A stretch of 64,000 nucleotides of DNA from Patescibacteria group bacterium. Lineage in GTDB: Bacteria > Patescibacteriota > Minisyncoccia > Phycocordibacterales > UBA12079. This document shows positions 3,627 through 63,846 of this stretch, piece by piece. The notes under the pieces are model-generated. The model did not search any database. It was not told where the DNA came from and saw only the letters and a program-made list of their open reading frames with translations. How positions within the stretch are numbered: position 1 is the first letter of the stretch; every line of letters starts with the position of its first letter. Location: assembly GCA_018817595.1 (NCBI GenBank), contig JAHITU010000007.1, forward strand, positions 8,775 through 72,774, given 5' to 3'. The position numbers and the translations under genes are program-made.

Positions 3627-5618
3627 TTATTCTGAAATCAATTCAAAATCGATTACTTGTTTGTCTAAATCAGTTTTGACTAATTTTACTCTAACCTTGT
3701 CTCCTAGGGTATGCTTTACCCTTGTTTTTTGTCCCACTAGGCGATAATGCTTAGTATCTAATTCATAGTAATCATCCTGAAGAGAACGAACACTAATCAT
3801 TCCTTCAGCTCCGTTTTCTGCTTGGACATACACACCCCATTTTGTAATTCCAGAAATAATTCCTTCGAATTCCTGACCAATTTTACTCGACATTAACTCT
3901 GTGAACTTATATTTCGTAGAAGCTCTTTCGGCTGTTACGGCTGCAATTTCTTGTTGAGTGGATTTGCTGGTTAATTCTTTGTATTTTTTAATAGAACGAG
4001 GAGAAAGATTTTTCCCTGCTAAATAATTTTTCATCAAACGATGCACCATCATATCAGGGTAACGACGAATAGGTGAAGTGAAGTGAGTATAATGTTTGAA
4101 TCCTAAACCAAAATGCCCAATATTTTGAGTCGAGTAAATTGCCTTTGCCATTGATTTAAGCATAGCCGTAGCAATCAAATCTTCTTCTGGCAAACCTTCA
4201 ATTTTCATTAATAAATCATTCAATTCTTTTGAAGAAACTTTATTATCTTTGATTTTTAAATTGAATCCAATAGTTTTTAGGAACTCTGACAATTCTTTCA
4301 ATTGTTCTGTTTTAGGTACATCGTGAATTCTATAAACAAAAGGTAATTGAATCTTCAGTTTTTCTTCTTGATGACTTATATATTGGGCTACTTCGCGATT
4401 AGCTAAAAGCATAAAGTCTTCAATTAACTCATTAGTATCCATCATTTGCTTTTCGTAAACATCAATAGCCTTTCCGGTTTTGTCCAAAATAAATTTGTAT
4501 TCGTTTGATCCAAAGGAAATAGAACCTTTTTCGGTTCTGTCAGCTCGGAGAATTAGAGCCAATTCATTCAAGGTATTTAATTCCTTATAGAATTCACCAG
4601 CTTTATTATCCAAGGTTTCTTGAGCATTTTTGTAGGTGAATCTTTTGTCAGAATGAATAATAGTTTCTCCAAACCATCTAGCTTTTACTTGTGCATTTTT
4701 ATCTATTATGAAAACAGCAGAATAAGTCAATTTGTCTTCATTAGGATTAAGAGAACATAGGTTATTAGAAAGCACTTCAGGAAGCATCGGAATCGTACGG
4801 TCTATTAGATAAACAGAGGTACATCTAACAGTAGCTTCACGGTCTATTGGGGAGTCAATAGGAACATAGTGGGTTACATCAGCGATATGAACTCCAATTT
4901 CATAATCCCCATTTTCTAATTCTTTGAACGATAAAGCATCATCAAAATCCTTGGCGTCATCAGGGTCGATAGTAAAAGTAATTCTGTCTCGCATATCCTT
5001 TCTCTTAGGAATTTCTTGAGCGAAGTCTTTTAGAGCTTGTTTGGATATAACTTCGGCTTCAGCTTCGACACCTTCTGGAAAATCAGGTTCAAAACCTTTT
5101 TCATAAAGAATAGCTTGCATTTCAGTTTCATTGTCACCCTTATGTCCGATTACTTTAATTATTTTTCCTTGAGGATTTTTCTTTGGGTCATTCCATTCAG
5201 ACATTTCAGCTACGATTTTTACATCATGGCTGGGGATTTCTCCATCACTAAGGTCTAGGTCTAAACGGGGGTAAAATTTAATATCATCGGCAACTAAAAA
5301 ATAACCTTCATTATCTTTTCCTAAGGTTCCTACAAATTTAGTTTTAACTCTGTTTAATATTTCAGTAACTTTGGCTATTTTAGTCCCTGCCTGCCGAGAG
5401 GCATGGTTTCCTCTTTTAGCTACTTTGATTTTTACTATATCTCCATTTAGAGCAGTATTCAAATCAAAGTCAGAAATTTCAAAATCTCCGTGTTCGGTTT
5501 TCAAGAAACCACGCTTTCTTGTGGTTACTATAATATTACCTTCATAAAATTCTTGCTCTTTATCTTGAGATTTTTTATGTTTCTTTTCATATGTCTTGTT
5601 TTTCTTCATACCCCACAT
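3627..5618 (-). CDS. rnr: ribonuclease R (RNB-domain 3'-5' exoribonuclease with C-terminal S1 domain)
   Basis: 663 aa. RNB catalytic core and a C-terminal S1-like segment GIISGITKWGVYVQ...GMISVRSL. Confidence 0.85.
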   Translation of the reverse strand: MWGMKKNKTYEKKHKKSQDKEQEFYEGNIIVTTRKRGFLKTEHGDFEISDFDLNTALNGDIVKIKVAKRGNHASRQAGTKIAKVTEILNRVKTKFVGTLGKDNEGYFLVADDIKFYPRLDLDLSDGEIPSHDVKIVAEMSEWNDPKKNPQGKIIKVIGHKGDNETEMQAILYEKGFEPDFPEGVEAEAEVISKQALKDFAQEIPKRKDMRDRITFTIDPDDAKDFDDALSFKELENGDYEIGVHIADVTHYVPIDSPIDREATVRCTSVYLIDRTIPMLPEVLSNNLCSLNPNEDKLTYSAVFIIDKNAQVKARWFGETIIHSDKRFTYKNAQETLDNKAGEFYKELNTLNELALILRADRTEKGSISFGSNEYKFILDKTGKAIDVYEKQMMDTNELIEDFMLLANREVAQYISHQEEKLKIQLPFVYRIHDVPKTEQLKELSEFLKTIGFNLKIKDNKVSSKELNDLLMKIEGLPEEDLIATAMLKSMAKAIYSTQNIGHFGLGFKHYTHFTSPIRRYPDMMVHRLMKNYLAGKNLSPRSIKKYKELTSKSTQQEIAAVTAERASTKYKFTELMSSKIGQEFEGIISGITKWGVYVQAENGAEGMISVRSLQDDYYELDTKHYRLVGQKTRVKHTLGDKVRVKLVKTDLDKQVIDFELISE

Positions 5619-5742
5619 TATATGATAAAACTTTAAAATTGTCGCCTCATCGGCGACCCGCCGATGAGGCGGGAAAGAAAATAAAAAATGATTATTACTT
5701 ACAAAGTTTTGTGGTAAAATATAAAAAAATTAAAAAATAGAT

Positions 5743-6874: not shown

Positions 6875-7777
6875 ATGACTATTCACAAACCAGTTCTTTT
6901 AAAAGAAGTGATAGAAGGATTAGATATCCAAGTCGGTGATGTTGTTATAGATGGCACGGTTGGCGGCGGAGGATATCTTATAGGCATTTGTTCTCATTTA
7001 GGCAAAGGGGGAATTATGATTGGTTTGGACCAAGATAATTCAGCCCTAGAAAGAGTCAAAAAAAAACTTTCTTTTCAAAATATTGTTTGTAAAACACATT
7101 TAGTAAATGCAAACTTTAGGAATCTAGATTCTGTTTTAAAGGATTTAAATTTAGAGAAAGTAGATAAAGTTGTCTTTGATTTAGGAATTAGTTCAGATCA
7201 GTTAGATAACTCAGGTAGAGGTTTTTCCTTTCAAAAGGATGAACCATTGATAATGTCTTTGAAAAAAGATTTAACTGAAGACGATTTGACTGCCTCTGAG
7301 ATAGTAAATAATTGGGATGAAGATAATTTAGCTGACATTATTTTTGGCTACGGAGAAGAAAAGTTTTCTCGAAAAATTGCCAAAGAAATTTGTGAAGCTC
7401 GAAAAGAGAAAAAAATTGAGACTACTTTTGAGTTAGTTGAAATAATAGAGAGAGCAGTTCCCAAATGGTATTTATTTAAAAAAACCCATTTTGCTACCAA
7501 GACTTTTCAGGCATTAAGGATTACTGTAAACGACGAAATTGAATCTTTAAGAGAAGGTATGCAAAAAGCATATGACGCTTTAAATTCAGATGGAAGATTA
7601 GCAATAGTATCTTTTCATTCAAGAGAAGACCGAATTATTAAAAGGTTTTTTAGAGAAATGAAAAATGAGAAAAAAGGAATTTTAGTAAATAAAAAACCTA
7701 TCAGTCCAAGCCCAGAAGAGTTAAAGACAAATCCTCGTTCACGTTCTGCAAAATTAAGAATTATTCAAAAGATTTAA
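6875..7777 (+). CDS. rsmH: 16S rRNA (cytosine1402-N4)-methyltransferase RsmH
   Basis: HKPVLLKEV...DGTVGGGGY SAM motif, directly after mraZ. Confidence 0.9.
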   Translation: MTIHKPVLLKEVIEGLDIQVGDVVIDGTVGGGGYLIGICSHLGKGGIMIGLDQDNSALERVKKKLSFQNIVCKTHLVNANFRNLDSVLKDLNLEKVDKVVFDLGISSDQLDNSGRGFSFQKDEPLIMSLKKDLTEDDLTASEIVNNWDEDNLADIIFGYGEEKFSRKIAKEICEARKEKKIETTFELVEIIERAVPKWYLFKKTHFATKTFQALRITVNDEIESLREGMQKAYDALNSDGRLAIVSFHSREDRIIKRFFREMKNEKKGILVNKKPISPSPEELKTNPRSRSAKLRIIQKI

Positions 7778-7945
7778 GAATTAAGATTTAAGATTTAGGA
7801 ATTAAAAATAATGAAGAAAAATTTGCGACTAAAACATTTTAAAAAATGTTCGTCCAACCAAAACTGTGTTTTGGTTTAGGAAGCAAATTCTTCTTCAAAA
7901 AGCTAACACCTAATCCGCCAGCTGGCGGACTAAACAACTAATAAA

Positions 7946-8278: not shown

Positions 8279-10012
8279 ATGAAAAAATCAAGTTTTTTAT
8301 TTAGAATAAAATTTTTGTATGCAGGTTTATTCCTGTTTTTCTTTATTTTAGTTGGTCAATTATATATGATTCAAATAGTTAAGGGTGATGAATATAGTGA
8401 AAAAGCCGACAATCAATATATTAAACCTCAGTATATTTTCAATCGAGGAAATATTTATTTTGAAGATAAAAATGGAAAAAGAATTTCTGCTGCTATGACT
8501 CGCTCAGGTTTCCAATTAACTATTAATCCTTCTTTGATTGAGGATGCAGAAGGCACCTTTAACAAATTATCTCAAATAATAGAAATAGACAAAGAAGACT
8601 TTATGTATCGAGCTGGGAAAAAAGATGATACTTATGAGGTAATAAAAAGACAAATTATAGACGATAAAATATCAAAACAAATAAAAGATTTAAAATTAAA
8701 AGGGGTTACTCTTGAATTAGATAAGTGGCGTTTCTACCCAGGAGATAAATTAGCTTCTCATGTTTTAGGTTTTGTTGGTTACAACGAAGATTCTCTTGAA
8801 GGAATTTATGGAGTGGAAAAATATTATAATTATATATTAAACAGAGAATCAAAAAATCTTTTTGTGAACTTTTTTGCAGAGATTTTTTTGAATGTGAATT
8901 CTGTTATTGATGGAGACGACTCAAAAAAAGAAGGAGATATTGTTTTAACTATAGAACCTACTGTGCAAGAATACTTAGAAACTACATTAGAAGACTTGGA
9001 AGAAAAATGGAGTACTGATTTGGCAGGTGGAATTATAATAGACCCCAATAACGGAGAAATAATCGCTATGGGTTTTTCTCCTTCTTTTGATCCAAATAAT
9101 TTTTCTAAAGCTAAAGATGGAGTGCTTTTTGGAAATCCTATGGTGGAATCTGTATATGAAATGGGTTCTATTATTAAAGCCTTGACCATGGCTATTGGTT
9201 TAGACACTGGTGTGGTTACTGCAGAGACCACCTACAATGACACTGGTTTTAAAACCTTGAATGGAAAGACTTTTTATAATTATGATGGAAAAGCCAGAGG
9301 GGTGGTTCCTATGCAAGAAGTTCTAAATCAGTCTTTGAATATTGGCGCAGCCTTTGTCGAAAACAAAATAGGAAATGAAAGATTTGCAAAATACCTTTTG
9401 GATTTAGGTATCGGGGAAGAAACGGGAATTGATTTACCTAATGAAACTTATGGTTTGGTTTCTAATTTAGAATCCACTCGAGATATTGAATATGCTACTG
9501 CGTCATTTGGACAAGGAATAGCTATGACTCCAATAGAGACAGTTAAAGCTTTATCAGCTTTGGCTAATGGAGGAGTCCTAATAACTCCGCATTTAGTTAA
9601 AGAAATAAAATATAGTGTTTTATCTTCTGATGAAATATCGTATGATGATAATGAAAGGATTTTTAAAGAAGAGACTTCTGATGAAATCAGTCGAATGTTA
9701 GTTCAGGTTGTGGATGAAGCATTGTTAGGAGGAACAGTAAAATCTGAAGATTATACTATCGCCGCTAAGACAGGAACCGCTCAGATGGCAAAGGAAGACG
9801 GAAGAGGGTATTATGATGATAAGTATCTACACAGTTTTTTCGGCTATTTCCCAGCTACTCGTCCTGAGTTTTTAACATTTTTATATGTTGTGGACCCAAA
9901 GAATGTAAATTATGCCTCTCATACTTTAACACAGCCCTTTATGGACATTTTTAAATTTTTAGTTAATTATTATGAAGTGGTACCCGACAGAGTCGGAGTC
10001 GAAAGTCTGTAA
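8279..10012 (+). CDS. ftsI: penicillin-binding protein 2/3 transpeptidase (FtsI-like)
   Basis: SXXK (SIIKAL), SFGQG and KTGTA motifs. N-terminal TM. Confidence 0.85.
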   Translation: MKKSSFLFRIKFLYAGLFLFFFILVGQLYMIQIVKGDEYSEKADNQYIKPQYIFNRGNIYFEDKNGKRISAAMTRSGFQLTINPSLIEDAEGTFNKLSQIIEIDKEDFMYRAGKKDDTYEVIKRQIIDDKISKQIKDLKLKGVTLELDKWRFYPGDKLASHVLGFVGYNEDSLEGIYGVEKYYNYILNRESKNLFVNFFAEIFLNVNSVIDGDDSKKEGDIVLTIEPTVQEYLETTLEDLEEKWSTDLAGGIIIDPNNGEIIAMGFSPSFDPNNFSKAKDGVLFGNPMVESVYEMGSIIKALTMAIGLDTGVVTAETTYNDTGFKTLNGKTFYNYDGKARGVVPMQEVLNQSLNIGAAFVENKIGNERFAKYLLDLGIGEETGIDLPNETYGLVSNLESTRDIEYATASFGQGIAMTPIETVKALSALANGGVLITPHLVKEIKYSVLSSDEISYDDNERIFKEETSDEISRMLVQVVDEALLGGTVKSEDYTIAAKTGTAQMAKEDGRGYYDDKYLHSFFGYFPATRPEFLTFLYVVDPKNVNYASHTLTQPFMDIFKFLVNYYEVVPDRVGVESL

Positions 10013-11729: not shown

Positions 11730-11961
11730 AAATGATTAGGGGTCGTTCCTCTTAATAAAGATAATTGTAATCTTTAGGCAAAAATTAAAAAGCTAAGATA
11801 ACCGAGGTGCGACCCCTAATTTAAATTTTAAATTATGAAGTCCGATTTCTGTCTGCCCCTGCGCGCCGGCAGGCGTGGGCATAGGCAGGGGTTGGGGTGT
11901 TCAAATGGCTAAAACCTTAATAATAAATAGCCCAACCGGTTGGGCTATTTAATTTACTTCA

Positions 11962-16941: not shown

Positions 16942-18102
16942 ATGATATTATCAAAAAATAATAAAATATGCAATATGTCAAATTTTTGGAAAAAAATAAA
17001 AGAAAACAAAAACTCCTCCTTCGCTGAAGCTTCGGCGAACAGGCCTTTTTTTGCATTGGCACCAATGTTGGATGTGACTGATTCGGCTTTTAGAGAAATA
17101 GTGGCTAAATATGGCAAACCAGATGTTTTGTGGACTGAGTTTGTTTCTTGTGATGGTATGTGTTCTGAGGGAAAAGAAAAATTAATGCACCTTTTGCATT
17201 ATACAGAAAAACAAAGACCGATTGTGGCTCAATTATTTGGGTCTAATCCAGAAAATTTTAAAAAAACTGCTCGCATTGTGGCTGAATTAGGATATGACGG
17301 AATTGATATAAATATGGGTTGTCCTCAAAAAACTATTCTTAAACAAGGAGCAGGGGCGTGTTTAATCTCCACTCCAGATTTAGCTCGAGAAATTATTAGA
17401 GCCACCAAGAAAGGAGCAGGGGATTTACCTGTGTCAGTCAAAACTAGAATTGGATATAAAGAAGACACATTAGAAGAATGGTTACCTGTAATTATAGAAG
17501 AAAAACCAGTGGCTATTACTGTTCATGGAAGGACTCAAAAAGAAATGTCTCAGGTGCCTGCTCGTTGGGATAGAATTAAAAAAGCAGTAGAAATGGCAAA
17601 AGGAACTGGGATTATAATGATTGGAAATGGAGATGTTAAATCTATTGAGGAGGGAATTGAGCGAGCCAAAGAATCAGGAGTGGACGGAGTAATGATTGGT
17701 CGCGGAATCTTCGGCAACCCATGGTTATTTAGTAGAAAATGCGGACAGGACGCTGATATATACAGAATTAACGCGGAAAAATTTGTAGGTACCGAGTACC
17801 TACAAATAGATAATGACTTGGACACCGGGTGTCCAAGTATTGAAGAAAAGTTAGGGGTTTTGATTGAACATATCGAATTGTATGAGAAATATTATGCTAA
17901 AGAATACAAAGAAGGGGATTGGGTCTTTAAGTCTTCTCGCTCTGATGGGCGAATAAAACCTTTTAATATGATGAAAAAACATATAGGAGCTTATGTAAAA
18001 GAATTCAAAGGAGCCAAAGAGCTAAGAATGGAATTAATGGAAACAGAAAGTGAAAAAGAAGCGGTAGATATTTTAAAAAAATATCTAAGATTTAAGATTT
18101 AA
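16942..18102 (+). CDS. dus: tRNA-dihydrouridine synthase
   Basis: ALAPMLDVTDSAFR FMN-binding TIM-barrel signature and catalytic Cys region. Confidence 0.85.
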   Translation: MILSKNNKICNMSNFWKKIKENKNSSFAEASANRPFFALAPMLDVTDSAFREIVAKYGKPDVLWTEFVSCDGMCSEGKEKLMHLLHYTEKQRPIVAQLFGSNPENFKKTARIVAELGYDGIDINMGCPQKTILKQGAGACLISTPDLAREIIRATKKGAGDLPVSVKTRIGYKEDTLEEWLPVIIEEKPVAITVHGRTQKEMSQVPARWDRIKKAVEMAKGTGIIMIGNGDVKSIEEGIERAKESGVDGVMIGRGIFGNPWLFSRKCGQDADIYRINAEKFVGTEYLQIDNDLDTGCPSIEEKLGVLIEHIELYEKYYAKEYKEGDWVFKSSRSDGRIKPFNMMKKHIGAYVKEFKGAKELRMELMETESEKEAVDILKKYLRFKI

Positions 18103-18345
18103 GAATTATGATTTAAGAACGAATTTTACTCTGCAAAATAAATGAAAAGCCTGCGGACAGCCTGCCCACTCCTGCCGGCGCGCAGGGGCGGACAGGCGAC
18201 TTGAGGTGTTGGATTTCAACAATTTGGGCTTGATTTTTGGAGTAATGTCAGATATTCTAATTTAAAGAATAGTTCTGTTTTTCAATGTAATTTTTTAATT
18301 ATGTTGAAAATGTAATTTAACCTAGTAAATTAGAGGAGAGTATTT

Positions 18346-18582
18346 ATGGTTGGTTTATGTTGCTCTGGTAAGAAAAGAGGTGATAAGGGTGAGGGTTTAG
18401 GTTCTCATCCAGTTAGGCTTGATAAAAGTGAGGGTCGTTTGGTTGTTCTAAAAAGTCCAAATGGAACTTACACAGAATTCTTCAACCCTGATATTGCAAA
18501 ACCTATAGCTCAAACAGAAAGAAGAAAGGGGCAAGTTGGTCCAAATAGAGGACGAAGGTCTTTAGACCATCTTCAGATTTAA
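18346..18582 (+). CDS. small hypothetical protein (78 aa, basic, CC motif)
   Basis: Strong RBS GAGGAGAGTATTTATGG. Followed by a terminator at 18593-18629. Confidence 0.45.
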   Translation: MVGLCCSGKKRGDKGEGLGSHPVRLDKSEGRLVVLKSPNGTYTEFFNPDIAKPIAQTERRKGQVGPNRGRRSLDHLQI

Positions 18583-18749
18583 GAATCAAACAAAAAGCCC
18601 GTCAGCTGTGGTTAAGCTGACGGGATTTTATTATGTTCTTTTATATCTATAAGCCGGATTCTGTTATCATCCGATCATTAAAAATGATTTAGGATAATAG
18701 ATAGTTATTTATCTGGATATATTGTCGCCAATATATCTCAAGCGGCACC

Positions 18750-18950
18750 CCCAGCACTTTGAGCATAAGCTCAAAAATTTTCAATTTACAATTTACAATT
18801 TTCAACCAATGAAATAATTTTCAATTTACAATGACGAATTTTGGCAGAGCCAAAATTCGTAAACATTGAACATTTAATCATTGAAAATTCATTGAGAATT
18901 GAAAATTGATTATTGGAAATTCTTTGTTTGCTTACAAACAAAGTGCTGGG
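18750..18950. repeat. inverted-repeat element CCCAGCACTTTG ... CAAAGTGCTGGG (201 bp) with internal TTTTCAATTTACAAT direct repeats
   Basis: Same 12-bp arms as at 15311 and 41046. Confidence 0.55.
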
Positions 18951-19058
18951 TACGGCCTTGCATTTGGGTAAGGATTTAGCCGTTTCAATCTTCAAGTTTC
19001 CATGAAGCTAATCCCGAAGGATTCTGATTTTCTTTCGATTGTCAGCGTCTCTGTTCGC

Positions 19059-19375
19059 ACCTCAGAAGCACCTCGCTATCGCTCGTTGCAGATTTAAGAA
19101 TATAGATTTAAGATTTAAGAGAAAAAATCACAAAGTGATTCTTCTGTTATCTTAATTCCTAATTCTTAAATCATAAATCTGTATCTCACGATAGTGAGAT
19201 GCTCCGACAGGTATTACCTGCTACCATTTTAACTAAGCACCTCGCTATCGCTCGTTGCAGATTTAAGAATATAGATTTAAGATTTAAGAGAAAAAATCAC
19301 AAAGTGATTTTTTATTTTCTTAATTCCTAATTCTTAAATCATAAATCTGTATCTCACGATAGTGAGATGCTTAAG
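19059..19375. repeat. tandem duplication (about 180-bp unit x2) in a 1-kb non-coding region
   Basis: AGCACCTCGCTATCGCTCGTTGCAGATTTAAGAATATAGATTTAAGATTTAAGAGAAAAAATCACAAAGTGATT...TCTCACGATAGTGAGATGCT occurs twice. Confidence 0.7.
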
Positions 19376-19546
19376 TAAATGTCCGGACTTTCCTCCAAAT
19401 TTTTATAAATAAAAACTCGGCAACTATCCGATATAAAAGAACATAATCACATTATACAATAAAATATAATATTTAGCAAAAGTTCATAAAAACTAAGTTG
19501 TGGATAATAAAATAACCATATATTCCAATATGTAGTATAATTGTTT

Positions 19547-19585
19547 AGGAAGTTAGGAAGTTAGGAAGTTAGGAAGTTAGGAATT
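19547..19585. repeat. microsatellite (AGGAAGTT)4
   Basis: Direct octamer repeats just upstream of ftsW. Confidence 0.8.
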
Positions 19586-19663
19586 AGTTAATTAGGAAAA
19601 AATTTACTTCGTAAATTTTTTAGCTAAAAACTAATAAGCTAACCCCTAATTAGCTAAACATTT

Positions 19664-24663: not shown

Positions 24664-24902
24664 TCTTTTGACTTTAAGGACTTTCGACCTTATACTTGTG
24701 CATATGTTCGATCAAAAAAATCAAAAAAGAATAAAAATCGTTTGGGCAATTTTAGGAATACTAGTAGCAGTCAGTATGGTTCTCGTTTATATACCATTCT
24801 AAATTTTAGATTTTAAATTTAAAAATTTACTTTGTAAATTTTTCCTAACACCTAAACCTGCCTGCTGGCAGGCAGGTAGCTAACACCTAACAACCTAATA
24901 AA

Positions 24903-25298: not shown

Positions 25299-25463
25299 TA
25301 GAATAGTACAATGAGTCGAAAGTCTATAAAGCCTGCCTGCCGGCAGGCAGGTCCGTAAAGTCAAAAGTTATGAATTTTACTTTGTAAAATTCATTTTTGT
25401 CTGACGGCAAGTAATGGTTATAAAAAATTTTTTATATTAATAATTTAATAAAATATAAATAGT

Positions 25464-25736: not shown

Positions 25737-25840
25737 GCCCTTGTAGTTCAATGGATAGTCGCCTCATCGGCGACCCGCCGAAGAGGCGGGAACAAGACTT
25801 CTTTGAATTCATAATTTAAAGTATCTTCTTACTAAAATTT
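25737..25840 (+). repeat. partial 5' copy of tRNA-Arg (nt 1-22) fused to a GC-rich hairpin and a copy of nt 23-31, immediately upstream of the intact tRNA
   Basis: GCCCTTGTAGTTCAATGGATAG equals the first 22 nt of the tRNA at 25841. The hairpin CGCCTCATCGGCG ACC CGCCGAAGAGGCG also occurs at 5641-5675. Confidence 0.6.
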
Positions 25841-25912
25841 GCCCTTGTAGTTCAATGGATAGAACAAGACACTCCTAACGTCTAGATCTAGGTTCGATTC
25901 CTGGCAAGGGCA
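25841..25912 (+). tRNA. tRNA-Arg (anticodon CCT)
   Basis: Cloverleaf folded by hand: acceptor GCCCTTG/CAAGGGC, D-stem GTTC/GAAC, anticodon loop CTCCTAA, T-loop TTCGATT, no encoded CCA. Confidence 0.85.
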
Positions 25913-26116
25913 CAAAAGGAGAAATCAGTAGCGATCTAGCTACTGATTTTTCTTTTCTTTTGTAGGTCTTGCCAGGAATCGAAAGACGGAGGCGCGAAGC
26001 CAATTTGTGAGCTTGCGAACAAATTGAAGCCGAGTTCGGGTCGAAGGTTCTTATTAAAATTTGAGCTTACGAAAAATTTTAATTAGAAACCTGTGACCGA
26101 TTCCTGGCAAGGGCAC
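25913..26116 (+). ncRNA. conserved structured element trailing tRNA-Arg; ends in a direct copy of the tRNA 3' end and holds an inverted copy internally
   Basis: Terminator hairpin, inverted CTTGCCAGGAATCG, conserved CGAAAGACGGAGGCGCGAAGCC...GCCGAGTTCGGGTCGAAG...TTTGAGC...GAAAAA...AATTAG core, then GACCGATTCCTGGCAAGGGCAC. The same architecture follows the Phe, Glu and Gln tRNAs. Confidence 0.6.
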
Positions 26117-26520: not shown

Positions 26521-26640
26521 CGTCTCTGCGACTCAGCACTTTGAATTTTATTACTTACCTTCTTATTATAAATAAATGTTTATTTACATAAACTTTGTTT
26601 ACATTGTTTTAACAAAGTGATGGGGAAGCAGTCCAGAGAA
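26521..26640. repeat. MITE-like repeat CGTCTCTGCGAC-TCAGCACTTTG ... CAAAGTGATGGGG-AAGCAGTCCAGAG
   Basis: Same termini as 13339 and 41033. Abuts the tRNA-Phe trailing element. Confidence 0.55.
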
Positions 26641-26645
26641 TTTAA

Positions 26646-26936
26646 AAAACAGCTAAAAAGCTGTTTTTTATTTTGTGCTGAGGGGCGGGCTCGGTCACGA
26701 ATCACTAAGTCTTTTATTTCGCCCTGCCTACCCCTGCGCGCCGGCAGGCGTGGACAGGCGTGGGCAGGCAGGTTCGCTCATAAAAAACAAAGTGTTCTCA
26801 ACCCCGTCTCGGCTTTTTCTTTTGCTTCGCTCCAGAAAATAGACCTGTGACTTTCGAGCCCGCACGAAAGCAAAGAAGTTTGCTTTCTCCTTCATCCCAA
26901 AATAAAAAAACAGCTAAAAAGCTGTTTTTTATTTTG
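26646..26936 (-). ncRNA. tRNA-Phe trailing structured element (minus strand) carrying an extra GC-rich repeat insert
   Basis: On the minus strand it reads tRNA, terminator, conserved core (GCCGAGACGGGGTTGAGAACACTTTG...ACTTAGTGATTCGTGACCGAGCCCGCCCCTCAGCACA), then a second copy of the terminator hairpin. It contains the GCCCCTGCGCGCCGGCAGG-type GC-rich block. Confidence 0.6.
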
Positions 26937-27009
26937 TGCTGAGGGGCGGGCTCGAACCGCCGACCCTTCGCTCTTCAGGCGAATGCTCTACCAACTGAGC
27001 TACCTCAGC
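26937..27009 (-). tRNA. tRNA-Phe (anticodon GAA)
   Basis: The reverse complement folds as GCTGAGG TA GCTC AGTTGGTA GAGC A TTCGC CTGAAGA GCGAA ... TTCGAGC ... CCTCAGC A. Confidence 0.9.
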
Positions 27010-27232
27010 ATATTTTATTTTTCTACCTACTGAGCCTGTCTGCCGGTGAGACAGGCAACCTCAGCATATTGATATTTATATATCATACCTTATTTATAGA
27101 TTTTTTCAATAATATTTACAAAAATTACATTTGCAAAAAATTTGAAAAAGTTATATTCTAAAAACTAGAAAATAACTTGTAAATTTACATAGACCAAATA
27201 ATCAGATTCTTAGAATTTGAGAGGAGGTTGTT

Positions 27233-27784: not shown

Positions 27785-28263
27785 ATTAACTCTTCAACAA
27801 CCTTTTTAACCAAAGCGCCGTCGACGTCTTCGCCGGTGCTTTTTATTTGTCCTAGTATTGCCCCGATTAAAATTCCCGCTCCTGCCTTGCCGGCAGGCAG
27901 GTTAGTTGCATCTTCTATACCTAATTCTGCTTTTTTAGCAATAGCTATTTCTCTTATTTTTTCTTCACTCATCATTTCAGGTAGGTATTTTTCTAGAATT
28001 TCTAGTTCTGCTTTTTCACTCGCCACTAAATCTTCTCGACCACCTTTTCCATATTGTTCAATAGAATCTTTTCTTTGCTTAACAGCCTTTTTAATTACAT
28101 TTAAAGCGTCTTTATCTTCAATAGGTTCTTGAGGTTTCTTACCTAAAGATATTAATTCATTAGTAAAACCAGCGATAAGACTTTTTAAAACCATTAATCT
28201 AACCTCTTCACGATTTTTCATGGCTTCTTTTAACTCCTCTCTTATTTTTTCTTGTATTTTCAT
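27781..28263 (-). CDS. yqeY: GatB/YqeY domain protein
   Basis: 160 aa with the YqeY-like helical fold (MKNREEVRLMVLKSL...). Confidence 0.75.
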   Translation of the reverse strand: MKIQEKIREELKEAMKNREEVRLMVLKSLIAGFTNELISLGKKPQEPIEDKDALNVIKKAVKQRKDSIEQYGKGGREDLVASEKAELEILEKYLPEMMSEEKIREIAIAKKAELGIEDATNLPAGKAGAGILIGAILGQIKSTGEDVDGALVKKVVEELI

Positions 28264-36542: not shown

Positions 36543-36764
36543 ATGAGTCAAAAGTCCATAAAGTCTGTAAAGTCAAAAGTCACGAATTTTTACTTTGTAA
36601 AAATTTGTCTTTACGAGAAGATAAAATTTAATATTTAAAAAAAAGCTCAATAGAGCCAAAATAAATAGCCCATCCTGTTGGGCTATTTATTTCTTGCCTT
36701 TAAATAATTTTCGGCTATACTCAAAATAGCTGTTTAAATTTTATTTTAAAAAAAGGAGAGAATC

Positions 36765-38044: not shown

Positions 38045-38188
38045 ACAAGTCAAAAGTCCATAAAGTCAAGAAAGTCCATAAAGTCAAAAAATTTGCAAAT
38101 GAATTTTTCACTTTCGATTTTCGACTTCTGCTGACAAGCAGATCTGACTTTTGAATTTAAGGACTTTACAGACTTTCAACTAATCGTA

Positions 38189-39834: not shown

Positions 39835-39905
39835 ACAAGTCTGTTAATCATCAAAATCAAAAAACTTTTGACTTTCGACTTTAAAGACTTTAGACTAGTT
39901 ACATT

Positions 39906-40961
39906 ATGTTATTAGATGTAGTAAAAATATTTGTGCCATGGACAGTTTCTTTCTTTATTGGCTTAGCTATTGCTCCTGCCTTAACCCACTACTTATACAA
40001 GCACAAAATGTGGAAAAAGACTTCTGGTAAACAAAAAGGCTTAGGTGGTGGAGGAACTCCTATTTTCAACAAATTACATAAAGAAAAAGACACAGGAACT
40101 CCTAGAATGGGGGGTATTGTTATTTGGATGAGTGTTTTGATTACTATCTTTATATTTTGGTTAATTTCTTGGCTTTACCCAACAGATTTTACTCAAAAAA
40201 TGGACTTTATGAGTCGAGGTCAAACTTGGTTGCCGTTATTTACTTTGATAGCTGGCTCTCTTGTCGGTTTATTTGATGACATTTTAGTTGTTTCAGGAAA
40301 GGGTAAATATATAGCAGGAGGATTATCTCTAAAAGCAAGAATTTTAATTGTCCTATGGATAGGATTAATCGGAGCTTTTTGGTTTTATTTTAAATTAGAT
40401 GTAACCAGTGTACTTATTCCTTTTATTGGGGAATGGTACTTAGGATTATTCTTTATCCCATTTTTTATGTTGGTTATGTTAGCACTTTTTGCTAGTGGGG
40501 TAATAGATGGGATTGATGGTTTATCGGGAGGGGTAATGGGAACTATTTTTTCAGCTTATGCAGGGATAGCTTTTTTTCAAAATCAAATCGACTTGGCCGC
40601 TTTCTGTGCCGTTATAGTAGGAGGAATTTTGGCTTTCCTTTGGTTTAATATTCCACCTGCTCGGTTTTATATGTCAGAAACAGGTATCTTGGGATTAACT
40701 GTAACCTTAACAGTGGTGGCTTTCCTAACAGGACAGGTTTTAGTTTTGCCTATTATTGCATTCCCACTTTTTGCTACAGTTTTAGGAAACATTATCCAAG
40801 TTGCCTCTAAAAAAATCAGAGGTAAAAAAGTATTTTTAGTAGCCCCGATTCATCATCATTTTGAGGCTTTGGGATGGCCTAGTTATAAAGTAGTAATGCG
40901 TTATTGGGTAATCAGTATCATTTTCGCCATTATGGGAATGGTCATTGCTTTGATAGGTTAG
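39906..40961 (+). CDS. mraY: phospho-N-acetylmuramoyl-pentapeptide transferase MraY
   Basis: Polytopic membrane protein with the DD(x)(x)D-type and HHHFE-like (PIHHHFE) MraY motifs. Confidence 0.8.
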   Translation: MLLDVVKIFVPWTVSFFIGLAIAPALTHYLYKHKMWKKTSGKQKGLGGGGTPIFNKLHKEKDTGTPRMGGIVIWMSVLITIFIFWLISWLYPTDFTQKMDFMSRGQTWLPLFTLIAGSLVGLFDDILVVSGKGKYIAGGLSLKARILIVLWIGLIGAFWFYFKLDVTSVLIPFIGEWYLGLFFIPFFMLVMLALFASGVIDGIDGLSGGVMGTIFSAYAGIAFFQNQIDLAAFCAVIVGGILAFLWFNIPPARFYMSETGILGLTVTLTVVAFLTGQVLVLPIIAFPLFATVLGNIIQVASKKIRGKKVFLVAPIHHHFEALGWPSYKVVMRYWVISIIFAIMGMVIALIG

Positions 40962-41032
40962 CGAGTCGAAAGTCAAAAGTCCATAACCTGCCTGCCGGCA
41001 GGCAGGAGTCGAAAGTTAAAAAATTTTAATTT

Positions 41033-46906: not shown

Positions 46907-47263
46907 ATTGGCTCTATCGTCTAACGGTTATTGGAATTAAAAGCAAATTTCTTTGCTTTTAATCCGGTTCTGAGCGATAGCGAAGAAATGACCGATGTTT
47001 ACGAGGTCATAGGATAAGCCTTCGTTGAAGGCGATGTCTTTGAAATATAGCAGACAATGTTAATTTAAAATATAATATATAGTAATGGCCTTATCGTCTA
47101 ATGGTTATTGGAATTAAAAGCAAATTTCTTTGCTTTTAATCCGGTTCTGAGCGATAGCGAAGAAATGACCGATGTTTACGAGGTCATAGGATAAGCCTTC
47201 GTTGAAGGCGATGTCTTTGAAATATAGTAGACAATGTTAATTTAAAATATAATATATAGTAAT
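46907..47263 (+). repeat. two tandem 181-bp units, each starting with a copy of tRNA-Glu nt 1-22, directly upstream of the intact tRNA-Glu
   Basis: Units at 46907-47087 and 47088-47263 are about 98% identical. Each holds GGC(T/C)(C/T)TATCGTCTAA(C/T)GGTTA plus inverted copies of tRNA segments (GAAGGCGATGTC is the reverse complement of tRNA GACATCGCCTTC). Confidence 0.7.
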
Positions 47264-47335
47264 GGCCTTATCGTCTAATGGTTAGGACATCGCCTTCTCA
47301 AGGCGGCAATCCGGGTTCGATTCCCGGTAAGGTCA
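47264..47335 (+). tRNA. tRNA-Glu (anticodon CTC)
   Basis: Acceptor GGCCTTA/TAAGGTC, D-stem GTCT/GGAC, anticodon loop TTCTCAA, T-loop TTCGATT. Confidence 0.85.
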
Positions 47336-47518
47336 CAAATCAAAAATAACAGTCTTTCTGACTGTTATTTTTTGATTCTAGTGAATCTCCTGTGGAGATA
47401 ATCGAAGGTCGGAAGAAAATCCGAGATTTTCTGAGACGGGGTCGAGAACACTTTGTAAAATTTGAGCAAAGCGAAAAATTTTACTTAGTGATTCGTGATC
47501 GATTCCCGGTAAGGTCAC
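47336..47518 (+). ncRNA. conserved structured element trailing tRNA-Glu; ends in a direct copy of the tRNA 3' end
   Basis: Terminator, CGAAGGTCGGAAGAAAATCC...GAGACGGGGTCGAGAACACTTTG...TTTGAGCAAAGCGAAAAA...ACTTAGTGATTCGTGATCGATTCCCGGTAAGGTCAC. Confidence 0.6.
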
Positions 47519-47811
47519 AAAAAACAAAAACCTACACTTTATCGACCGTCAATAAAGTGTAGGTTTTTGTTTTGTTTTGCAAAAAGTAGGGGTAGCACCC
47601 CTACTTTTTAAATTATAAGATATTGTTGAAAAACTTCATAATTTCTTTATTTTTTCTTTACTGAAACTTCATAATAAATATGTATAAATTTGTAATTAGT
47701 GTGTTCTTACAGAAATGAAAGGAGGTGATATACTATTCTTTTGAGAGTTATCTTAGTAAATATTTTTTCACTAAATTTAAACCTAAATTAAAAAAGACCT
47801 AGGAGGTCAAA

Positions 47812-50698: not shown

Positions 50699-51025
50699 AT
50701 GAATTATTTAACTTTAATTGTCGTTGGAATAGCAGGGGTTATTGTAGGGTCTTATTTTGGAATGCAGAAAGGGAATGGTGGAAAGAAAAATATACTTTCA
50801 AAACAAGCTGAAGCTAAGATCGAGAACAAACAAAAAATTTTAGAATTTTTAAAAAATAACGAAAACCTGCCTGCCGGTGAGGCAGGAATCACTAACAATA
50901 ATGTTGAGGAATTATGTTCTGTTTCCAATGCCACAGCAGAAAGATATTTAGATGAGTTGGAAAGGGAAGAAAAATTAGTTCAACATGGTAAAATAGGGAC
51001 AGGTGTATTTTATACGTTAAAATAA
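50699..51025 (+). CDS. TM-anchored winged-helix DNA-binding protein
   Basis: N-terminal TM. C-terminal wHTH (ATAERYLDELEREEKLVQHGKIGTGVFYTL). Contains the in-frame GC-rich palindrome CCTGCCTGCCGGTGAGGCAGG. Confidence 0.5.
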   Translation: MNYLTLIVVGIAGVIVGSYFGMQKGNGGKKNILSKQAEAKIENKQKILEFLKNNENLPAGEAGITNNNVEELCSVSNATAERYLDELEREEKLVQHGKIGTGVFYTLK

Positions 51026-51112: not shown

Positions 51113-51748
51113 ATGTTAGTTTTTATTGATGAATCCGGAGATCCAGGATTAAAAATGAATAGCGGTTCAAGTCGGTTTTTTACTATTGCTTTGGTAGTAT
51201 TTGAAGATTATGATGAGGCTACTAATTGTGATAGAAGAATTGAATTATTAAAGAAAGAATTAAGTTGGAGTGATAATTCAGAATTTCATTTTAAGAAAAA
51301 CTCTTTAAGAGTTAGGGATTCGTTTTTTAAAGCTGTTATGCCTTATAATTTTTTCTATTATGGTATTGTCATAAACAAAGATCCTAACAAACTTTATGGA
51401 GAAGGTTTCAAGAATAAATCTTCTTTTTATAAATATGCATGTAGTCTTGTTTTTGAGAATGCAAAAGATAAATTAAGTAAATCAATTGTTGTTATAGATA
51501 AAAATGGAAATAATGAATTTCGTAATCAATTAGCTAAATATTTAAGAAGAAAGATGAACATTGATAAAAAGAAGATTAGAAAAGTTAAGATGCAGAAATC
51601 TGAATCCAACAATTTGTTACAGTTGGTTGATTATGTTGCTGGGGCAATAAATAGATCTATTGTTAACTCAAGAAAAGATTCTCAGGTTTTTAGAAAAATG
51701 CTTAGTCGTAAAGAAATGTATGTTCAAGTGTGGCCAAAAAAAGAATAA
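51113..51748 (+). CDS. DUF3800 family protein
   Basis: N-terminal MLVFIDESGD and C-terminal LQLVDYVAGAI motifs, both characteristic of DUF3800. Confidence 0.65.
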   Translation: MLVFIDESGDPGLKMNSGSSRFFTIALVVFEDYDEATNCDRRIELLKKELSWSDNSEFHFKKNSLRVRDSFFKAVMPYNFFYYGIVINKDPNKLYGEGFKNKSSFYKYACSLVFENAKDKLSKSIVVIDKNGNNEFRNQLAKYLRRKMNIDKKKIRKVKMQKSESNNLLQLVDYVAGAINRSIVNSRKDSQVFRKMLSRKEMYVQVWPKKE

Positions 51749-51954
51749 AAGAAAACCACCGAACCTATCCTTGCGGAACGCAGTGATAAACACTACAGTT
51801 TGGTTCGGTGGCACTTCCTTAATTGAAACTATAACATTTTATATCAAAAAATCAAGTAAACTGTGGATAACTAAAACATTGTAAATAAAATTTAAATTAG
51901 CTCTAAAAGAGCAGAACGGCTCAACGACTTGAGCTATTTAAAATAAATGAAAAT

Positions 51955-63207: not shown

Positions 63208-63612
63208 CTATAAAAATAAAGACACTAGAATGAATATTCTAGTGTCTTTATTTTTATTTGTCCGGCAGGGGCTCGAAAGACGAAGGCTGCGAAGCCAGTT
63301 TTTCGAAGAAAAACTGTAGCCGAGTCGGGGTCGCGAGTACTTATTATTTTTGAGTGCGAAGCACGAAAAAAATAATTAGTAACTCGTGACCGAGTCCCTG
63401 TCCGGCAACATATAAAATATAGACCCTAAAGCACTAGCTTTAGGGTCTATATTTTATTTGTCGGACAGGGACTTGAAACGAGCGAAATATATTTTTCTGA
63501 AGCGTTAGCGGAAGAAAAATTTGAGTGAGCAGGGTCGCGAGTTCTTAATAGAATTGAGTCCGTAGGACGAAAATTATATTTAGAACTGGAGACCGAGTCC
63601 CTGTAAAACAAC
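63208..63612 (+). ncRNA. two tandem copies of the tRNA-trailing structured element, each ending in a copy of the tRNA-Gln 3' end
   Basis: Copy 1 runs to about 63409 (…AATTAGTAACTCGTGACCGAGTCCCTGTCCGGCAAC). Copy 2 runs to about 63612 (…GAGACCGAGTCCCTGTAAAACAAC). Each has a terminator hairpin and an inverted TGTCCGGCAGGGGCTCG / TGTCGGACAGGGACTTG. Confidence 0.6.
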
Positions 63613-63846
63613 ATGATTAAATAACCCTAAAGCACTAGCTTTAGGGTCTATATTTAATATCCATCTACTATCACAGGTTCGAACCTGTGTGATGTTTAAT
63701 ATGGTTGGGTAGGGAATAGGTTTTGAAAACTAGTTAGTTAAAGAGAAATTATTGCATTAAATTTTAAAATGCGTTGCTATTTTTTTAGTAAGAGTGTATT
63801 TTATTAATAGATAGTTCGTTCAAATAAATCACTTAAGAGGTGTCCT

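Follow-up and report, generated by a model that had tools for sequence, protein, structure and literature searches.

The DNA analysed here, called the window throughout, is a stretch of 64,000 nucleotides (nt) from contig JAHITU010000007.1 of a Patescibacteria group bacterium (positions 8,775 to 72,774 of the forward strand), with a GC content of about 31% throughout. By Pfam, its first 20 open reading frames (ORFs) encode the dcw cluster, SMC, DprA, aminoacyl-tRNA synthetases and other housekeeping genes. The encoded proteins indicate Paceibacteria/Patescibacteria, a winged helix-turn-helix protein being 100% identical to an NCBI entry from a Patescibacteria group MAG (metagenome-assembled genome). 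Dispersed in this AT-rich sequence is a GC-rich 20-nt palindrome, CCTGCCTGCCGGCAGGCAGG, which we term P. The window holds seven P-type copies, each 20-21 nt long, including two exact copies, one with a single mismatch and three 21-nt derivatives. The principal derivative, CCTGCCTGCCGGCAAGGCAGG, is P with one extra A and is termed V. P and its relatives are probably copies of an ultra-short (20-22 bp) GC-rich palindromic, non-autonomous insertion element that has been copied to non-homologous sites. The copies in the window are the following:

25332 to 25351, no strand: exact P, CCTGCCTGCCGGCAGGCAGG, intergenic between a DivIC-like ORF and a glutaredoxin gene, flanked by AAAGTC-type short repeats.
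40987 to 41006, no strand: exact P, 26 nt 3' of the ORF at 39906-40961, between flanks GAGTCGAAAGTC and AGTCGAAAGT.
24857 to 24876, no strand: P with one change (central CCGG to CTGG), intergenic, with CTAACACCTAA on either side.
27881 to 27901, minus strand: 21-nt V, CCTGCCTGCCGGCAAGGCAGG, in frame in yqeY, where it encodes LPAGKAG.
50866 to 50886, plus strand: 21-nt derivative CCTGCCTGCCGGTGAGGCAGG, in frame in a 108-residue winged helix-turn-helix (wHTH)/DUF977 gene, where it encodes LPAGEAG.
27034 to 27054, plus strand: CCTGTCTGCCGGTGAGACAGG, within a tRNA-Phe 5' fragment (27020-27072).
5386 to 5405, minus strand: putative half-decayed P copy CCTGCCTGCCGAGAGGCATG in the RNase R gene, reading HASRQAG.

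The last two copies had been overlooked in a first-pass annotation of the window; the coordinates given there were all confirmed, and scans for GC-rich islands and P-like arms added further elements. The CCTGTCTGCCGGTGAGACAGG copy is of the same GGTGAG subtype as the one at 50866, with an additional compensatory C:G to T:A pair. A homolog search with RNase R gave no matches, and the status of its copy as an insertion is putative. Allowing up to three mismatches, P matched the window four times and 100 dinucleotide shuffles not once, which bears out the earlier claim that the palindromes are not there by chance.

The copy at 25332 folds into an 8-bp stem with a 4-nt loop. Such sites could be held in place by selection for a host function, as a site bound or cut by a conserved recombinase, nuclease or methyltransferase, a hairpin that stabilises RNA or ends transcription, or a signal for replication or segregation. 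Many copies do lie just 3' of genes, and the centre of the palindrome is GCCGGC/CCGG, with one CCGG to CTGG copy of the kind expected from deamination of a methylated cytosine. Against a role in termination, none of the copies shows the intrinsic-terminator feature of a GC hairpin with an immediate T run, and some lie in ORFs or tRNAs. The sequences 3' of window copies (tccgtaaag, agtcgaaag and tagctaaca) contain no T run, whereas the evident terminators of this genome are AT-rich stems followed by T runs. No evidence establishes the copies as the recombinase or nuclease recognition sites that the first-pass annotation had suggested.

Comparison with related loci (each designated L with a number) revealed that the copies are polymorphic, and the absence of copies from the same sites in close relatives speaks against a host function. 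Across 17-20 kb of synteny, relatives carry 0-2 GC-rich elements versus about 10 in the matching stretch of the window. The P at 25332 is absent from the syntenic spacer in L124 and L121. L123 has a diverged ortholog of the copy at 24857, CTTACCTGCCGGTAGGCAGG, with the same CCTAA-type flanks, and L121 and L124 have no copy there. Conversely, a cation-ATPase gene of L121 has an exact P upstream, at a position that is without P in the window, L123 and L128. The palindromes thus form a dispersed family whose load is lineage-specific.

The two coding copies are in-frame insertions, as had been proposed. Most YqeY and wHTH orthologs lack the seven residues; orthologs that carry the segment encode it by the same palindromic DNA and not by unrelated codons. 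Among 29 close homologs of YqeY, labelled Pacebacteria or Patescibacteria, the segment is missing in most, some of them 78% identical to the window protein; others have LPAGKAG, and a more distant clade has LPAGRQG. The Bacillus subtilis YqeY structure (1NG6) shows a seven-residue alignment gap at part of the extra segment. At the nucleotide level, the empty yqeY site in L123 reads TCT AAA ATA GGA, and the filled site in the window, L121, L124 and L128 reads TCT AA-CCTGCCTGCCGGCAAGGCAGG-A ATG GGA. In L126 and L127 the same position is occupied by exact P plus a G, TCA AA-CCTGCCTGCCGGCAGGCAGG-G-A ATG GG (LPAGRQG). The wHTH gene repeats this pattern: the empty site in L166 is GAA AAG ATA ACG and the filled pattern is GAA AA-[21 nt]-A ATC, with CCTGCCTGCCGGCAAGGCAGG in L164 (LPAGKAG), exact P in L165 (LPAGRQ) and, in the window, CCTGCCTGCCGGCAAGGCAGG bearing two substitutions. 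Neither the yqeY nor the wHTH junctions show a target duplication. Identical sequence is found at unrelated sites, and orthologs with and without it differ by an insertion with clean boundaries, usually with no target duplication.

In both genes two different variants occupy one site, which points to hot spots or rapid turnover. In four YqeY genes, all seven insert codons were identical in six of six pairwise comparisons, versus about 60% identical codons at conserved residues elsewhere, and these codons are GC-ending in an AT-rich genome. This identity reflects either a constraint at the nucleotide level or young copies produced by hot-spot re-insertion or homogenisation; the two variants per site favour turnover at hot spots, although a functional constraint may act. 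Synonymous-site identity of this kind in four diverged genes is also what selection for a host function would leave behind. YqeY contains a second GC-rich stretch, at window positions 27815-27836, encoding GEDVDGA. At the same place L126 (1267-1288) has a perfect 22-nt palindrome, CCGTCGGCGCTAGCGCCGACGG (TVGASADG), and L127 (2673-2695) a near-identical sequence with one T to A change, and more distant orthologs are three residues shorter; judged from these sequences, the stretch may be an older in-frame palindrome.

V is common beyond the window. A scan of metagenome contigs found it in at least 120 loci, and of the copies in DNA of 50% GC or less, 81 of 119 (68%) lie in long unambiguous ORFs that fall into 68 unrelated protein clusters. 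Exact P lies in long ORFs in only 18 of 98 cases (18%). Over all V loci, the copies in long ORFs are read as LPAGKAG in 52 cases and PALPAGR in 14, with 21 in the four cysteine-containing frames combined. Judging by the flanking peptides, from which the names were read, the host proteins look like DnaE, ribonucleotide reductase, SerRS, peptidyl-tRNA hydrolase, TatD, KsgA, DNA ligase, a methyltransferase, LpxK and others. Because one specific 21-mer recurs, and not many different solutions of P plus one nucleotide, V itself must have been copied. The first-pass annotation had held that the palindromes insert without breaking the reading frame. The copies in genes are indeed in frame, but the basic 20-nt unit is frame-breaking and the gene copies are 21-nt derivatives; with 18% versus 68% of copies in coding sequence, frame preservation therefore looks like a filter on variants, the outcome of selection on what is tolerated, and not like a property of the insertion step. 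Removal of frameshifting 20-mers at the RNA level was considered as well and found no support, since coding copies in low-GC DNA are in frame with P present; in the test for ORF halves joined by removal of P, high-GC loci gave spurious long frames.

To survey exact P we relied on an exact-match scan of one genome per species (596 Gb), in which counts are lower bounds and a palindromic 20-mer is expected about 0.5 times by chance at even base composition. P was found in at least 120 genomes of many phyla, with matches in Patescibacteria, Bacteroidota, Omnitrophota, Planctomycetota, Bdellovibrionales, Nitrospirota-type and other records; no cyanobacterial record is among 80 genome titles from the P matches listed. 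The Bacteroidota matches include the cultured isolates Winogradskyella echinorum, Flagellimonas yonaguniensis, Longitalea luteola and a Flavivirga strain, and a complete Flagellimonas chromosome also carries P. The DNA around P is mostly below 50% GC, and the flanks are unrelated between matches. In IMG/VR viral contigs, P occurs in at least 35 stretches, some contigs having three to seven copies, whereas two control palindromes of identical composition (arms swapped; A/T exchanged) had no viral match.

This distribution bears on three alternatives. That the palindromes are chance matches, assembly artefacts or ancient coding segments palindromic by accident is a view to which we give practically no credence: the sources are mostly metagenome-assembled genomes (MAGs), which could favour an artefact, yet independent assemblies from different studies contain the identical in-frame 21-mer, which is passed down within YqeY lineages, copies exist in cultured isolates and a complete chromosome, the shuffles gave no match, and orthologs without the segment are the majority. 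The uptake or species-identity signal raised in the first-pass annotation fares little better and is very improbable. P is a short over-represented motif in DNA that encodes DprA, but uptake signals are lineage-specific with hundreds of copies per genome, whereas this 20-mer is sparse (usually once per locus retrieved), common to many phyla and phages, and found within genes and tRNAs. For a host function, an identical 20-mer across phyla would be favourable and a single exact copy from most genomes unfavourable.

In a phage tRNA-Met, P forms a long variable arm in the ARAGORN prediction, and its removal restores a canonical 72-nt tRNA; L085 is a tRNA-Arg with P in the D-loop. A tRNA 5' fragment or disrupted copy carrying a palindrome lies upstream of the intact gene in the window, L126, L015, L030, L037 and L106. 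In the window, the intact tRNA-Phe at 26936-27009 (minus strand) has the 5' fragment with CCTGTCTGCCGGTGAGACAGG just upstream, and L126 has an exact P at the matching tRNA-Phe position, GCTGAGGTA-P-GCTCAG. The tRNA-Glu, tRNA-Gln and tRNA-Phe genes of the window are flanked by mini-elements that duplicate tRNA ends. The tRNA pseudo-fragments are probably harmless landing sites, which the window genome produces anyway. An Rfam scan of 20 loci gave tRNAs only, with no other structured RNA containing P. Since copies sit in 68 unrelated protein families and in dead tRNA fragments, as well as in tRNA loops, nested in one another and in tandem arrays, a host-function site is less likely, and overall we consider it improbable.

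Palindromes and arrays are also targets. P nested in P is seen in unrelated genomes (L018, L042 and L021), and intergenic copies are often in phase within tandem heptamer arrays. L162 (viral contig IMGVR_UViG_3300025106_000007) contains at 3926-4142 ten or more tandem copies of the 21-nt P variant CCATGCCTACCGGCAGGCAGG. Flanking direct and inverted repeats are enriched, with direct repeats of at least 7 nt at 18% of copies versus 4% of controls. A flanking direct repeat of exactly 7 nt was present at 12 of 128 V and 5 of 174 P copies, and repeats of 4-6 or 8-12 nt essentially never; these exact repeats could equally reflect insertion into heptamer arrays. A uniform target duplication was rejected for the yqeY and wHTH insertions, which have none; other sites show only the 7-nt subset.

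The base preceding the insertion is strongly biased. Of 122 V copies, 95% have a purine at position -1, and for P a purine is present there on at least one strand in 93% of copies versus 70% at offset positions (p = 1e-13); insertion is therefore polar. Local GC skew, used to look for a replication-strand bias of V, follows gene orientation, and non-coding V copies with a clear skew sign split 7 to 4 (n = 11). Copies at the centre of other copies, variants that propagate themselves (V in particular), occurrence in many phyla and phage contigs, and polarity are thus all features of the family.

An enzyme-free route to such dispersal would be template switching, in which replication stalls at the stable hairpin and the nascent strand, pairing by 1-3 nt of microhomology, moves to another copy, reads the palindrome there and goes back, sometimes duplicating flanking bases or partial genes. 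The usual absence of target duplication, the common flanks AA-[V]-AAT of the yqeY and wHTH insertions, the enrichment of flanking repeats (18% versus 4% for direct repeats of 7 nt or more), the partial tRNA duplications adjoining copies, and the lack of a transposase in small candidate phyla radiation (CPR) genomes, as judged from 20 window ORFs and the gene tables of relatives, would all fit. A generic hairpin process, however, should generate lineage-specific sequences, whereas one 20-mer is common to phyla and the matched controls had no viral match; likewise, the purine at -1 and the exact 7-nt repeat (12 cases at 7 nt, none at 4-6 or 8-9 nt) appear enzyme-like. We consider template switching, the chief alternative to an enzyme, unlikely, though better placed than a host function.

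For the dispersed insertion element that we favour, the following course of events can be envisaged. Insertion would be fairly promiscuous but polar, 3' of a purine, with a preference for DNA that is single-stranded or in a hairpin loop, as in heptamer arrays, at palindrome centres and in the D-loop or variable loop of tRNA. Selection would then set persistence: the 20-nt form could survive in intergenic DNA and in RNA loops, to which it adds no more than a helix, and within genes only 21-nt (seven-codon) derivatives would last, mostly in two cysteine-free frames (LPAGKAG and PALPAGR) and where a loop is tolerant. Phages could plausibly have carried the element from one lineage to another. Our preferred guess for the agent, possible but doubtful, is a trans-acting enzyme that would act on single-stranded DNA hairpins at replication forks, by analogy with the way HUH-type REP-associated tyrosine transposases (RAYTs) act on repetitive extragenic palindromic (REP) sequences. 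An enzyme is preferred because of the cross-phylum sequence identity, the purine at -1 and the exact 7-nt class.

Several observations weigh against a mobile element. The exact 7-nt flanking repeat accompanies only about 10% of copies, and there is no uniform transposition signature. No mobilising enzyme appeared in Pfam scans of the first 20 window ORFs, all of which are housekeeping genes, and a phage contig with at least six copies gave, over its 10 ORFs, one weak sub-cut-off Pfam match, to a phage adaptor protein. Transposases are scarce in CPR genomes. Mostly one exact P copy was found per locus retrieved, unlike typical families of REPs or miniature inverted-repeat transposable elements (MITEs). 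Some MAG taxonomic labels may be wrong, and a parasite with no conserved partner protein would not easily account for one 20-mer being identical across phyla. Finally, the synonymous-site conservation of the 21-mer in the four YqeY genes fits selection on the sequence, or a function of it, equally well. A large transposon with P half-sites as its ends was also considered and rejected in 1.34 Mb of loci, where every isolated half-site proved to be a mutated full palindrome.

Compared with known systems, P and V appear to work like Nostoc small dispersed repeats (SDRs), yeast mitochondrial GC clusters, Rickettsia palindromic elements (RPEs) and REPs, yet seem to lack defining features of each. 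Nostocaceae SDRs, reportedly termed 'very small mobile repeated elements' by Elhai et al. in 2008, are said to sit within tandem heptamer repeats as well. Like SDRs, which are dispersed repeats of about 21-27 nt, P and V are dispersed and insertion-polymorphic between related genomes, and insert precisely into other palindromes (here at the centre CC/GG) or in phase into heptamer arrays. SDRs are tens of nt long, some 20 bp, and are dispersed and thought to be mobile with no coding capacity (PMC2884548); SDR5 inserts precisely within the palindrome HIP1 (PMC4390886). They have been reported only from Nostocaceae (PMC5861425). P is set apart from these descriptions by its identity across phyla and phage contigs and by its in-frame 21-nt derivative.

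The GC clusters of yeast mitochondria, such as GC42 (Wu & Hao 2015), are mobile, insertion-polymorphic GC-rich hairpin units in very AT-rich DNA that merge, nest and shuffle, and horizontal transfer has been seen (PMC4478555). Their substitutions concentrate in the loops, and the hairpin is therefore constrained (PMC4478555). They are organellar and mostly intergenic, and GC42 has 42 nt with a putative AG target duplication (PMC4478555). P, too, is a mobile GC-rich hairpin unit in AT-rich DNA that merges and nests, but it has 20-21 nt, is bacterial and phage-borne, shows no AG duplication and is frequent in genes.

RPEs, as Ogata et al. are said to have described in 2000, are palindromic repeats of an AT-rich reduced genome that lie in frame in protein and RNA genes. 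They are tolerated in permissive surface regions, occur only in Rickettsia and, at about 100-150 bp, lengthen a protein by 30-50 residues. P and V likewise occur in frame in protein genes and are absent from orthologs, but have 20-21 nt, add seven residues and cross phyla.

REPs and REPINs are GC-rich palindromes of 20-40 bp, non-autonomous and mobilised by RAYTs, which are IS200/IS605-like HUH enzymes; they are thought to move as single-stranded hairpins with no target duplication and are targets for other insertions (PMC3116915, PMC3733652). They are extragenic, species-specific, high-copy and linked to a RAYT gene, with a GTAG or CGTC head (PMC3116915, PMC3733652). P and V are similarly short palindromes (20-21 nt) repeated in a genome. 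The GTAG or CGTC head is absent from P and V, however, with GTAG preceding P in one phage contig only, and the elements are not extragenic, window copies lying in YqeY, wHTH and SMC. Neither the 20 scanned ORFs of the window nor the relatives' gene tables include a RAYT or Y1 transposase. MITEs typically span 50-500 bp, with an internal region bounded by terminal inverted repeats and derived from an insertion sequence, as opposed to 20-21 nt for P and V; separated half-sites of the MITE type flanking an ORF were absent from the 1.34 Mb of loci, which contained only variant full palindromes. The searchable literature yielded no description of the 20-mer, of LPAGKAG or of LPAGRQ, and the results listed for REP-type repeats in CPR genomes included no paper on such repeats.

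The feature is real, and we class it with the very small palindromic mobile repeats, among which it is unusual in its phylum and phage reach and in its coding-adapted 21-nt form. If it spreads as we suppose, the lower size limit of successful mobile or dispersed bacterial DNA would be about 20 bp, and one such sequence would extend across phylum boundaries. It would explain why LPAGKAG, LPAGRQ and PALPAGR recur as micro-insertions when proteins of CPR and other bacteria are aligned, and why gene calls include tRNA pseudo-fragments and unusual tRNAs that are interrupted or have a 'long arm'. It would also provide a polymorphic marker for strain tracking in metagenomes and a natural experiment on which loops of essential proteins tolerate seven extra residues. 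A bolder proposal, which we hold tentatively and judge almost but not quite as probable as its negation, is that P and V form a pan-bacterial 'nano-element' carried by phages, one lineage of a 20-bp palindrome that has a hidden polarity and whose 21-bp coding-compatible form colonises essential genes (DnaE, RNR, SerRS, Pth, GatB, YqeY and others) as a seven-residue loop. This would imply unrecognised, widely conserved or phage-supplied machinery for inserting short DNA hairpins, and, for the proteins and tRNAs of bacteria alike, a new and general origin of micro-insertions. The polarity of V, together with hundreds of independent insertion sites, makes the mechanism testable, and co-occurrence across genomes could identify the enzyme.

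Other GC-rich palindromes in the window belong to two further families, B and C, and to a palindrome that we call Q, TCCGCCAGCTGGCGGA:

11848 to 11891, plus strand: family B composite, in which the 20-nt GC-rich insert CCTGCGCGCCGGCAGGCGTG occupies the centre CC/GG of a P-like outer palindrome, CTGTCTGCC...GGCATAGGCAGG.
18148 to 18201, minus strand: nested family B composite in reverse orientation.
26719 to 26777, plus strand: family B composite of the common P variant CCTGCCTACC..GGCAGGCAGG around an inner insert of 31 nt.
5641 to 5674, plus strand: family C hairpin with 13-bp arms CGCCTCATCGGCG and CGCCGATGAGGCG and an ACC loop, intergenic between the RNase R and NUDIX genes.
25738 to 25800, plus strand: duplicate of nt 1-30 of tRNA-Arg(CCT) whose D-loop is interrupted after GGATA by a family C hairpin (25758-25793).
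1301 to 1316, no strand: Q in the SMC gene, read as PPAGGE; overlooked in the first-pass annotation.
7914 to 7929, no strand: Q, intergenic between mraW and the next ORF, with a CTAACACCTAA-type repeat flank as at 24857.

Family B is a P variant carrying another GC-rich piece of 20-31 nt exactly at the centre CC/GG; the composite at 26719-26777 sits in the loop of an element derived from the tRNA-Phe 3' end. The family C hairpin at 5641 has a folding energy of -18.8 kcal/mol (z = -6.6), and the second copy differs by one T to A change. The intact tRNA-Arg follows the second copy's tRNA fragment, at 25841-25913. L121 has the same family C hairpin after AATGGATAG, and L126 and L127 have neither the tRNA-Arg fragment nor the hairpin. 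Q or its core occurs at nine further loci, its enrichment being confined to the P-bearing loci retrieved, mostly CPR. In viral contigs, Q as an 18-mer gave two matches, equal to the two of its control, and family C gave none. Among P, Q and C, only P is clearly cross-domain.

The tRNA genes of the window adjoin other small repeats. At 46915-47336, two 177-nt tandem units, 98% alike, precede tRNA-Glu(CTC); each consists of the first 21 nt of tRNA-Glu, broken in the D-loop after GGTTA, and a 156-nt insert, and looks like a miniature D-loop-integrated element that restores the tRNA 5' end. The tRNA-Gln, tRNA-Glu and tRNA-Phe genes are each followed by an element of about 130-200 nt (63255-63615, 47340-47519 and 26640-26935, respectively); these elements share GGGGTYGAGAACAC...AGTGATTCGTGAYCGA, and each terminates in a duplicate of the last ~20 nt of its own tRNA. 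A similar element follows tRNA-Gly in L121. These constitute a family of mini-elements targeting tRNA 3' ends.

Most intergenic spacers contain AAAGTC arrays after genes and GACTTT arrays before genes (for example 36551-36581, 38053-38176, 39870-39891 and 18776-18921), and AT-rich terminator hairpins are bracketed by inverted arms of other heptamer arrays (AATTTAC, AGATTTA and TAAGATT). Copies of P and Q lie embedded in these intergenic arrays. A unit of about 169 nt occurs twice as a direct repeat at 19060-19400, with AGATTTA heptamer arms around a small hairpin, inside a stretch (18100-19660) that has no ORF of 80 or more residues. An Rfam match to DUF3800-IX RNA at 51751-51812 on the minus strand (47.2 bits, gathering score 36.8) lies just 3' of the ORF at 51113-51748. 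In L040, Q is the centre of a palindromic repeat of about 80 nt, TTTACCCCGTGAAATA...TATTTCACGGGGT, present twice (4430-4520 and 7280-7370); mini-palindromes can thus be cores of bigger repeats.

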